Assembly: GCA_965287045.1 (NCBI GenBank)
Contig: OZ336887.1
Location: 46,376,001 to 46,440,000, forward strand
Source of the DNA: Carcharhinus amblyrhynchos
Lineage: Eukaryota
Length of the DNA stretch: 64,000 nt
Direction: 5' to 3'
Shown: piece by piece, positions 1,375 through 4,654 of the stretch
How the letters are laid out: every line of letters starts with the position of its first letter
How positions within the stretch are numbered: the first letter of the stretch is position 1
The notes under the pieces: model-generated
What the model was told of the DNA's origin: nothing
Databases searched by the model: none
The model's input: the letters and a program-made list of their open reading frames with translations, nothing else
Program-made: the position numbers and the translations under genes

Positions 1375-1537
1375 GTCTCGATAGTTAGCTCTCTTGCCTT
1401 GGAATTAAACTTCAGCACAAAATCCAGGCTGACATTCCACTGCAGTACTGAGGGAGTGCTGTACTGCTGCCACATCTTTTGGATGAGATATTAAACTGAG
1501 GCCCCATATGACCTTTAAGGACGATGTAAAAGATCAC
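1375..1537 (+). mobile_element. Deu-domain SINE (SacSINE1-like), 5' part
   Basis: gcagtactgagggagtgctg...ttttggatgagatattaaactgaggcccc...gatgtaaaagatc matches the recalled Deu-SINE core. It continues at 2128-2147 and 3381-3582. Confidence 0.75.
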
Positions 1538-1814
1538 TTTTTTTTGTTTATATCCAATTCAGTCCAATCAAAGTCCAATTCAAAGTCTCAGCAAGTCAGA
1601 CATTTCAGATCCAAACTGACAAGACAGACTCACCACTCCCTGTCTTGGGTTTGATCTATGTGATCCAAACTGATTGAAGCAGGCATTGCATCTCCTTCAA
1701 GACTTGATCTCATTCGCATCTTAGCCAAAAGGCTGAGATGCCGCTTTAAAAAATTGCTTCAGATGAAGCCTCAGTGTAACCTCATGACTTCAACCAAGTG
1801 CAGGACAACAAAAG

Positions 1815-1847
1815 TATACTTGATCTTAGCCAAAAGGCCTAAGAGAT
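1815..1847 (-). ncRNA. U2 snRNA 5' fragment (~nt 1-34), degenerate
   Basis: Reverse complement atctcttaggccttttggctaagatcaagtata versus U2 atcgcttctcggccttttggctaagatcaagtgta; nt 11-32 are exact. Confidence 0.85.
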
Positions 1848-2098
1848 CTCATGGTTTATATATCCAATTCAATCCAATCAAAGTCCAATTCAGAGTCTCA
1901 CCAAGTTAGACATTCCCAATCCAGGCTGATAAGACAGGGTTGTCTTGGGCTTGATCTACCTGATCCAAGCTGATTAGAGTAGGTATTGCACTTTTTCCAA
2001 GGTTTGATCTCATTTGCATCTTAGCCAAAAGCCAAGATGCCTCTTTCAAAAATTGCTTCAAATGAAGTCGCAATGTAACCTTAGTGTAGTATTGTAGT

Positions 2099-2127
2099 GA
2101 TACTACACTTGATCTTAGCCAAAAGGC
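2099..2127 (-). ncRNA. U2 snRNA 5' fragment (nt 12-40), not a full gene
   Basis: Reverse complement gccttttggctaagatcaagtgtagtatc is a 29/29 match to vertebrate U2 nt 12-40, including the GUAGUA branch-point recognition sequence. Confidence 0.92.
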
Positions 2128-2154
2128 AGTGCTATTTGAAGAAGTGCATGTGTA

Positions 2155-3373
2155 ATGTCGTACCTTATGAGCCTGGTTGAGTTCTTTGAAAATGTAACTA
2201 AACACACTGATGAAGGAAGAGCGGTGGATGTGGTTCATATGGACTTCAGCAAGGTGTTCAATAAGGTCCCCAATGCAAGACTTCTTGAAAAAGTGGGAGG
2301 GCATGGGATCCAAGGGGCTGTTGCCTTGTGGATCCAGAACTGGCTTGCCTGCAAAAGGCAGAGAGTGGTTCTGGATGGGTATTTTTCTGCATGGAGGTCG
2401 GTCACCAACGGAGTGCCCCAGGGATCTGTTCTGGGACCCTTGCTGTTTGTAATTTTCATAAATGATCTGGATGAGGAAGTGGAGGGATGGGTTGGTAAGT
2501 TTGCTGATGACACGAAGGTTGGTGGTGTTGTGGATAGTCCGGAGGGATGTCAGAAGTTGCAGCGCGACATCGATAGATTGCAAGACTGGGTGAAGAAGTG
2601 GCAGATGGACTTCAACCTGGATTAATGTGTAGTGGTCCATTTTGGCAGGTCCATTAGGATGAAGGAGTATAATATCAAGGGTAAGACTCTTAGTAGTGTA
2701 GAAAATCAGAAGGACCAAGGTTCATAGGACTCTTAAATCGGCCTCGCAGGTGGAAGATGTGGTCAAGAAGGCGTATGGTGTGCTAGCCTTCATCAATCAA
2801 GGGATTGAGTTCAGGAGTCGGGAGATAATGCTGCAGCTTTATAAGACCCTAGTCAGACCCCACTTGGAGTATTGTGCGCAGTTCTGGTCGCCTCATGACA
2901 ACAAAGATGTGGAAGCTATTGAAAGGGTGCAGAGGAGATTAACAAGGTTGTTGCCTGGATTGGGTGGCCTTATGAGGATAGGTTGAGGGAGCTCGGTCTT
3001 TTCTCCCTGGAGAGATGGAGGATGAGAGGTGACCTGATAGAGATTTATAATATGTTGATTCTCAGTCGGGTGGATTCTCAGGGGCTATTTCCCAGGGCTG
3101 AAATGGTTGCTACGAGAGGACACAGGTTTAAGGTACTGGGGAGTAGGTACAGAGGAGATGTCAGGGGTAAGTTTTTCACTCAGGGGGTGGTGGGTGAGTG
3201 GAATCGGCTGCCGTCGGTGGTGGTGGAGGCGAACTCGATAGGATCTTTTAAGAGACTTCTGGATTAGTACGTGGGATTTAATGGGATTGAGGGTTATAGG
3301 TAGGCCTAGTAGGTATGATCAGCGCAACTTGTGGGCCGAAAGGCCTGTTTGTGCTGTAGTTTTTCTATGTTCT
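2155..3373 (+). mobile_element. 5'-truncated CR1 LINE (RT to 3' end)
   Basis: ORF 2155-2625 contains [23 protein letters not shown] and KFADDTK; C-terminal RPHLEYCAQFWSPH; (ttctatg) tail; candidate TSD atgtgta at 2148-2154 and 3374-3380. Confidence 0.95.
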
Positions 3374-3582: not shown

Positions 3583-4654
3583 TTGGATAGCACTATGCAA
3601 TTGGCTTCAACAGGACTTCCCAATGGCAAGTTTTTTTTTTGTTTCTATTGTAGCTGACAATCCCAAGCCTGCTATAATATACACACTCTATGTAATGTTC
3701 CTGGATCATGCAGTGAGATAAATACTAATAGCACAGCACTAGTAATCATATGATTCAGTTATGGAAGTCTGCAGTCACAGCTGCCAACAAGGCAAAAGAA
3801 AATCATCTACGACCAAAAGATTAAATAGCTGAGGCTGCAGCATGACTCCAAATGATTGACTTTCAATTTACCACTAGGGTGTTGGTGTTGGCAACTGAGT
3901 ATTTACCATAGAAACCACCCATTTTGGAAATTAAAAGTCAACCAGTTGCTATATGGACCGAAATATGACAAGTCAATTTGGCAGTAGGTTTACTGTCACA
4001 TTCTCAGAGACAAAAGTCTCTGCATGACCCTGTAAGATCAGTAAGGGAAAGGAACATGCTTTCATAGTAGACTAAACAAAAATTGCTAATAGTTGTTTAG
4101 ATCCTAGTGGAATTGGTTATAAACTATAATAATCCCTTAGATTGAGCATTCATTCTCCTGTTTCACACATTGCCAAATATGATATGTTTTATTCCATTAA
4201 TTAGTAAGTGGCAATCAATTTTAGTGGCAATCAATCATTAAAGTCCTTGATTGCTCAACACTTTGCGGTAGTAGCCAAGATTTGTGTCATAATTAATGAA
4301 ATTGAAAATGATCTTATTATGATCTATTTAAAAGATTTACGTTTGGAGTTAAAAGTTCTAGCATCAGCATTATTTAAACAGTTTTGGATCATTATTTACC
4401 CACTCCTTCAAGACACTGTAATGCCTTCAATCTCAATGCTTTTTCATCTGTCCTTGTTTTCTTTTGCTGATTAATACATAAAAAGGTCATCTTAGCACTG
4501 AAAATAATAGGAAGTGATACTATTAACAATTCCTTCTAAAAGCTATTAATCTTGACGTAAGGGGCTATTGTAATTTCTCTGCGATCAGAAGTAATCATCA
4601 GATTCTGTATCCGTGGCTGTCAATCCTTACAGAAAGCTGTGTGATCCCTTCACA

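Follow-up and report, generated by a model that had tools for sequence, protein, structure and literature searches.

How two short units headed by the 5′ end of U2 snRNA came to lie head to tail in a shark genome is the question raised by positions 1538-2127 of a 64,000-nt stretch of Carcharhinus amblyrhynchos (contig OZ336887.1, hereafter the window), together with the question of what transcribes and copies such units. The two units are copies of a dispersed, non-coding short retroposon of about 300-310 nt, with a U2 head and an A-tail. Judging from sequence comparisons, this retroposon is likely to be copied in trans by a Keno-type LINE of the Tx1 group and likely to be transcribed from the promoters of the U2 genes that it occupies, a reading to which we assign a probability of about 75%.

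The dimer locus and the dispersed family

An earlier sequence-only reading of this DNA had described two homologous minus-strand units, and this is borne out: unit A (1854-2127) and unit B (1538-1839), both on the minus strand, are about 80% alike over 234 nt in a pairwise comparison. Unit A is a SINE copy without an A-run that differs by 10-11% from both subfamily majorities defined below, and unit B is a subfamily-b copy, 7.5% from the b majority. The U2 gene of the same genome served as the reference for the heads. The head of A (2099-2127, minus strand) is an exact copy of U2 nt 12-40, as had been claimed, and ends at the Keno insertion site. The head of B had been given as about U2 nt 1-34 (1815-1847); it is U2 nt 11-37 (1813-1839, minus strand), exact for nt 11-32 (1818-1839) and followed by 2 mismatches, and positions 1841-1850 are part of a target-site duplication. 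Unit B ends in a short-repeat tail (1538-1582, minus strand) whose last element is the 8-nt A-run at 1538-1545 that had been attributed to the distal unit.

The spacer between the units (1840-1854, minus strand) is host-repeat DNA, as deduced from uninterrupted relatives of the flanking repeat. Within it, 1841-1850 is the left target-site duplication of B, and the right one (1528-1537, minus strand) is identical to it at 8 of 10 bases. The 3′ part of the old host repeat (1395-1537, minus strand; 966 candidates in the genome) is interrupted by the dimer, and a remnant of about 25 nt is found at about 2128-2155. The relatives came from a genome-wide search in which 14 of 40 matches were fetched, and only 4 of these 14 individually matched the 5′ flank at p<0.05. 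The dimer had been placed inside a Deu-SINE; the interruption of an old dispersed repeat stands, and the repeat is presumably a Deu-SINE. The view that the locus is not a U2 gene also holds, the U2 3′ half being absent from both units and their scores with the Rfam U2 model (36 and 29 bits) falling under the 46-bit cut-off. A decayed LINE reverse-transcriptase fragment, which we take to be of CR1/L2 type, lies on the plus strand at 2141-3000 of the window, and the host repeat stops at it, some 25 nt upstream of A.

An internal 25-mer of the unit had 1,459 exact matches in the genome, and the control had none. Because 21 of 62 units chosen independently of that motif carried it, the number of copies is estimated at about 4,000-4,300; a separate similarity search of the genome returned 4,148 SINE candidates, near the estimate of ~4,300. 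The motif sample comprised 90 copies from the first 100 matches listed, on contigs C1 and C2, and 74 of these 90 retained the head to unit nt 20 or earlier. The family suspected from this single locus has a multicopy body, and most of its sampled copies are U2-headed as well. A target-site duplication score of at least 9 was obtained for 17 of 80 copies with a complete 3′ end, compared with 0.5% of shuffled pairs. Dispersed copies showed no overall U2-like target consensus; 4 of 70 reached at least 5/6 matches, and 0 of 29 Keno copies did so. A query made of 47 nt of flank and unit nt 1-262 was recovered at 65-74% of sampled words in six sequencing runs from three organisms (3 studies), and no RNA run was on record in this search. 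Lower shares, of 0.17-0.43, in organisms A-F and a fish metagenome were disregarded.

Clustering of 155 units gave two subfamilies, a and b, and an intermediate group at 8.9% divergence. In subfamily a the head comprises U2 nt 1-40 and the mean non-CpG divergence is about 5.5-6%; in subfamily b the head comprises U2 nt 1-37 and the mean non-CpG divergence is 8.6%. These two ends correspond to the Keno site with and without a 3-nt duplication, respectively. The heads had been thought to join the body at varied points; mostly they do so at these two fixed ones, and the odd head/body junction of unit A is a local fold-back.

The window dimer is most likely the product of two insertions at one site. 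If the dimer were instead the unit of the family, it would be a satellite, the result of a tandem duplication or a dimeric subfamily of the Alu kind; the dimer query did return many dimers and trimers, and locus L030 has similar junctions on both its units. Such an origin is very improbable and largely refuted. Only 3 of the 90 motif-sampled copies (matches listed, C1 and C2) had a tandem neighbour, most copies being monomers. Moreover, the spacer varies from locus to locus, and in 6 of 24 dimers it duplicates the 3′ flank, compared with 2.7% by chance (multimers with an incomplete last unit and one duplicate locus were left out of the 24). In the window dimer, host DNA forms the spacer and the two units differ in type, and at L257 Keno forms similar tandems around a duplicated target. 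A looser tally of spacer duplications (14 of 24, with a null of 32%) was uninformative and was replaced by the stricter count. Among 14 junction matches, 3 had a clearly young a unit before an old b unit and 0 showed the reverse, and 3 had a much more decayed 3′ unit; there are hints in these sequences that new copies may land upstream of old ones. The window dimer runs counter to this trend, its 5′ unit being the more diverged. Long head-to-tail trains of mixed Keno and SINE copies, extending over several kb, were also observed (L209, L241 and L214/L261-L262).

Anatomy and predicted folding of the unit

From 5′ to 3′, the unit consists of the head, an antisense U2 segment, a U-run, a sense copy of U2 stem-loop I and two related hairpin modules; a short stem-loop then precedes the short repeats and the A-tail. 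The heads and body had been recognized from the letters alone; the internal stem-loop-I copy and the antisense copy of the head had been missed. The antisense segment (unit nt 44-72; 1778-1806 in unit B, minus strand) corresponds to U2 nt 11-39, to which it is identical at 16-18 of 29 positions, and is predicted to fold back on the head, covering the bases that pair with the branch point. With a score that credits G-U pairs, its p value was 0.001-0.002 against 2-mer shuffles and 0.0125 across the whole body. Every one of the 7-9 transitions in the segment preserves pairing through G-U, with no pair lost, which is modest evidence that it may pair as predicted, some of the changes being possibly CpG decay. 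In unit A the usual antisense segment of the family is replaced by a perfect 10-nt inverted copy of U2 nt 30-39 (2083-2092, minus strand), which is absent from the subfamily majorities and has a p value of 0.21 taken alone.

A second, internal copy of U2 stem-loop I is found at 2018-2040 in unit A (about U2 nt 4-27) and at 1718-1741 in unit B, both on the minus strand. The predicted structures at 1584-1707 (minus strand) comprise two related hairpin modules (1664-1707 and 1612-1657) and a short stem-loop (1584-1602). The predicted folding energies of -108 and -116 kcal/mol compare with -81 and -84 kcal/mol (SD about 5) for shuffled sequences, i.e. about 5-6 SD below 100 shuffles. The subfamily changes in the hairpins look like CpG decay, and the copies appear to decay neutrally.

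This strong predicted folding, an Sm-like U-run (2048-2060, minus strand) and an 18-nt U4-like stretch in subfamily b would be in line with an origin from a functional snRNA gene, either a U2 variant or a U2/U4 hybrid, bearing a k-turn and an Sm site, the dispersed copies being its processed pseudogenes. We regard this origin as highly unlikely. The U-run, at unit nt 89-101, looks like an A-run and U2 nt 1-8 in antisense orientation, and this explains its likeness to an Sm site; the U4-like stretch is better explained as antisense U2, given the p value of 0.001-0.002 of that segment. An origin of the body from U4 or U5 was tried and rejected as unconvincing (U4, p 0.08-0.29; U5, p 0.04 at best in 12 tests). 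In addition, none of 120 sampled loci had a U2 promoter upstream of the SINE, and successive subfamilies are typical of a retroposon.

A Keno-type LINE at nt 38 of U2 genes

A Tx1-type LINE ends directly upstream of 7 of the 90 sampled SINEs (matches listed, C1 and C2). A 20-mer from the tail of this LINE had 1,051 exact genome matches, and among the first 30 of them listed a SINE followed within about 130 nt in 6 cases, where 0.003 were expected; the succession of a Keno tail and a SINE head is ~2,000-fold above chance. When the genome was searched for U2 nt 40-61 preceded by an A-run, 375 overlapping matches were obtained, and the 9 distinct sites fetched contained this LINE (6 sites), the SINE (2 sites) or a short SINE-like tail (1 site). 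At L228, in the main U2 cluster, the order is promoter, U2 nt 1-40, LINE, A-tail, U2 nt 38-192 and 3′ flank. A second array of U2 genes has a 407-bp period; 12 Keno insertions there are accompanied by a duplication of U2 that starts at nt 38 and stops at nt 50-57, the stretches having been picked around known insertions. The LINE is inserted before U2 nt 38 in both classes of U2 genes, in agreement with the earlier remark that the heads end near the site of a U2-targeting element. The second U2 class (C98 and C334; L071-L080 and L255-L260) shares ~88% identity with the main U2; its array units are nearly the same in sequence and have received many Keno insertions. At L254 (4720-5820), a decayed U2 gene of the main cluster bears several insertions, with a SINE fragment downstream; the locus also contains what may be a ribosomal-protein retrocopy.

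A 5.4-kb copy of the LINE (L256:784-6178) has an open ORF1 of 419 codons and an open ORF2 of 1,190 codons, and its full-length neighbours are 99% identical. ORF1 encodes ZCCHC3-type RNA-binding domains and a zinc knuckle, and ORF2 encodes an APE endonuclease (PF03372), a reverse transcriptase (PF00078) and a zf-RVT domain (PF13966), with Tx1-named homologs. With both reading frames open and this identity to its neighbours, the L256 element is probably active, as far as its sequence indicates. The LINE is assigned to Keno by endonuclease type and insertion site, and no homolog bears the name Keno. Keno is described in PMC4640811 and PMC4494074 as a U2-targeting member of the Tx1 group, where, as here, it is Tx1-like with an APE endonuclease and is followed in U2 genes by U2 nt 38 onward. 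The hosts named in the passages cited are frogs, fish, lancelet and hydra, and these passages mention neither sharks nor a non-autonomous passenger. The shark Keno differs further in that many of its copies are off-target and in that the SINE beside it is not a detectable deletion derivative.

All three dispersed Keno copies with a traced 5′ UTR start with U2 sequence. The Keno 5′ UTR (L256, ~933-960) contains an antisense match to the U2 5′ end at 20 of 28 positions (p=0.009), which is predicted to pair with the U2 leader. In older dispersed copies (L209, L194 and the C45 copy in L250), U2 nt 33-36 are joined nearly directly to the antisense point, and the ~150 nt in between are lacking. No description of such an antisense-U2 element was found in the Keno literature consulted.

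Comparison of the SINE body and tail with the 5′ UTR, 3′ UTR and ORFs of Keno gave no significant similarity (p 0.03-0.70; best 0.034 in 7 tests), and comparison of the SINE with the full-length copy gave no match beyond the U2 flank. The suggestion that the body might be the 3′ UTR of a Keno or Tx1 element is thus not supported, and the same absence of alignment with this Keno speaks against a truncated or internally deleted, SIDE-like copy of it. The SINE is accordingly a passenger rather than a truncated Keno, and the link between the partners rests on their common site and their adjacency. A mobilizer other than Keno, such as Utopia with its restriction-like endonuclease, would fit the lack of a common tail, and according to PMC4640811 Utopia and Keno have their U2 3′ flank in common. 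We consider this the least probable of the alternatives, since all 6 long elements among the 9 fetched U2 sites belong to the APE-type Keno family and since Keno and the SINE are strongly adjacent and have off-target sites in common. Two such sites in other repeats have been hit repeatedly by both elements, one seen at L100, L164, L169 and L172 and the other at L031, L174, L186, L189 and L190.

Origin of the heads and proposed mechanism

In a search for the SINE tail joined to U2 nt 39-47, 16 matches were obtained at 13 sites, 9 of which are SINEs and 4 unrelated chance matches. With L213 and L214, the SINE is thus present at the Keno site in 11 loci. At L213, L223, L245 and L237 the sequence runs on into U2 to nt 126, 112, 149 and 188, respectively, involving both U2 classes, and no U2 promoter match was found in the available flank. 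In L234, L235 and L244, a new A-run comes after 9 nt of U2 (nt 39-47), which is the pattern expected of 3′ transductions, and L239, L241 and L247 have only 9-12 nt of U2 after the SINE. L214 is a decayed array unit in which a spacer (82% identical), U2 nt 1-38, a complete SINE that has a head of its own, U2 nt 39-45 and Keno follow one another. A further search gave three matches (L280-L282), all of them dispersed copies with heads that reach U2 nt 52-55, without promoter or downstream U2; the duplications made by Keno in the second array stop at nt 50-57. No SINE was found in an intact present-day U2 gene among the genome sites examined, and the active C98 array contains none of the 13 SINE-tail/U2 sites. 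Copies flanked by U2 on both sides had been predicted. They exist as regards U2 nt 38/39 onward downstream; upstream, the promoter is missing from all 120 sampled loci, L214 lying behind array spacer. In one case (L093), a SINE is inserted into the head of another SINE at about nt 39, so that a member of the family provided the Keno site.

The U2-flanked copies and those with heads to nt 52-55 are the products to be expected if SINE-bearing U2 genes are transcribed and the RNA is retroposed, and we propose the following mechanism. In both U2 classes, Keno insertions lie before nt 38, a position at which the SINE is present as well. The promoter of the occupied U2 gene would then drive a chimeric RNA made of the U2 5′ end, the body, an A-tract and sometimes the rest of U2, which would supply the SINE with both a promoter and a head. 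Keno ORF2 would reverse-transcribe this RNA, mostly off-target, giving rise to thousands of promoterless copies with target-site duplications, while copies landing back in U2 genes could serve as new sources. Re-use of off-target sites by Keno and the SINE, for which part of the evidence is at hand, would produce the SINE-SINE and Keno-SINE tandems, including the window dimer. More speculatively, the fold-back of the antisense-U2 segment on the head might hide it from the splicing machinery or aid 5′ joining. For a minority of copies, template jumps onto free snRNAs would have supplied a new head or renewed the old one. The earlier idea of RNAs from U2 loci retroposed off-target is supported in its core, by Keno at nt 38 and by the U2 flanks of the SINE, and not supported as to a truncated Keno.

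Such jumps could also be the source of the heads in general: the SINE would be transcribed from other, flanking promoters, the Keno reverse transcriptase would jump to free U2, and the copies with U2 flanks could have arisen by occasional insertion of the SINE into existing U2 pseudogenes. One SINE copy, L033, carries a 5′ extension of U5 snRNA nt 1-23 (22 of 23 nt, ~1366-1388) that requires template switching and indicates that template jumps also occur. The odd junction of unit A and U2 pieces on 5′-truncated Keno copies (1 of 18 scored, more by eye) point the same way. R2 is reported to jump to U12 and tRNA (PMC3414825), and template switching with flanking promoters is favoured for the SINEU elements of crocodilians (Kojima 2015, PMC4494074). 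We nevertheless find this general account unlikely, because the junction is fixed at nt 40 or 37, the Keno site, in the subfamily majorities, because three copies have U2 nt 39-47 followed by a new A-run, and because the extended heads stop at nt 52-55, where the Keno duplications end. Transcription from occupied U2 genes with copying by Keno therefore remains our preferred reading.

The closest known system consists of the crocodilian SINEU-1, -2 and -3 (PMC4494074), which likewise have a U2-derived head, a length of <500 bp, a poly(A) tail and an internal oligo-T. More than one snRNA-derived segment and recurrent 5′ additions are described for them, as are tandem copies sandwiching a target-site duplication, tandem SINEU-3 being read by Kojima (2015) as we read the dimers, and a Tx1-type partner with snRNA heads and no tail shared with the SINE. 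The shark element agrees with SINEU in its snRNA head, its size, tail and duplications, its subfamilies and its recurrent 5′ addition of snRNA, seen in the internal second U2 copy, the U2 extensions to nt 52-55 and the U5 extension. The crocodilian partner, Tx1-Mar, targets Mariner according to the same paper, whereas the shark partner is a Keno still on-target in U2 genes; moreover, the shark SINE itself occupies the U2 site and has flanking U2 sequence, an indication of a promoter, and carries an antisense-U2 segment. The likeness is one of structure, and the shark element is likely to be of independent origin.

Other known elements are less similar. In the R2 and R2/R1 SIDE system of Drosophila (PMC3414825), non-autonomous elements are also found at the site of their LINE in a multicopy RNA gene and depend on co-transcription. 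The SIDEs consist of LINE ends, contain a self-cleaving ribozyme and go into the rDNA site, whereas the shark SINE has the 5′ end of its target as head, no detected LINE parts and a genome-wide spread. In snRNA pseudogenes and snRNA-LINE template-switch chimeras (reviewed in PMC4494074), snRNA 5′ ends are likewise joined to other RNA and retroposed, and L033 is such a case; those chimeras are one-off products, while the shark family has fixed junctions, subfamilies and thousands of copies. In the literature that was found, SINEU is reported from crocodilians only (PMC4494074), and a search with thin coverage of subscription journals gave no U2-headed SINE in sharks and no Keno passenger; an entry for the element may exist in Repbase or Dfam.

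Kojima 2015 (PMC4494074) left the transcription of SINEU open, since the U1 and U2 promoters lie upstream and are lost on retroposition. The presence in one genome of intact on-target Keno, of the SINE at the Keno site and of U2-flanked daughters makes a U2-promoter model directly testable, and the shark family suggests a route to the birth of a SINE without an internal Pol III promoter. As a tentative generalization, which we think possible but would not yet favour, snRNA-headed SINEs may be 'target-captured': they would ride a site-specific LINE into its target gene, take over the promoter and 5′ end of that gene, and cycle between U2-resident sources and dead copies, while an antisense-U2 fold-back common to the SINE and Keno would mask the branch-point helix and enable the RNA to act as that of a retrotransposon. 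If true, target capture would explain both the origin and the transcription of SINEU-type elements, independently in sharks and crocodilians.

The short SINE-like tail mentioned among the fetched U2 sites is at L221 (~1470-1560), where it is followed by U2 nt 38-93, about 450 nt past an IL10RB-like last exon (710-1015). This exon is 92% identical to IL10RB of Mustelus and 84% to that of Scyliorhinus, and all 14 of its matches are from sharks or rays.
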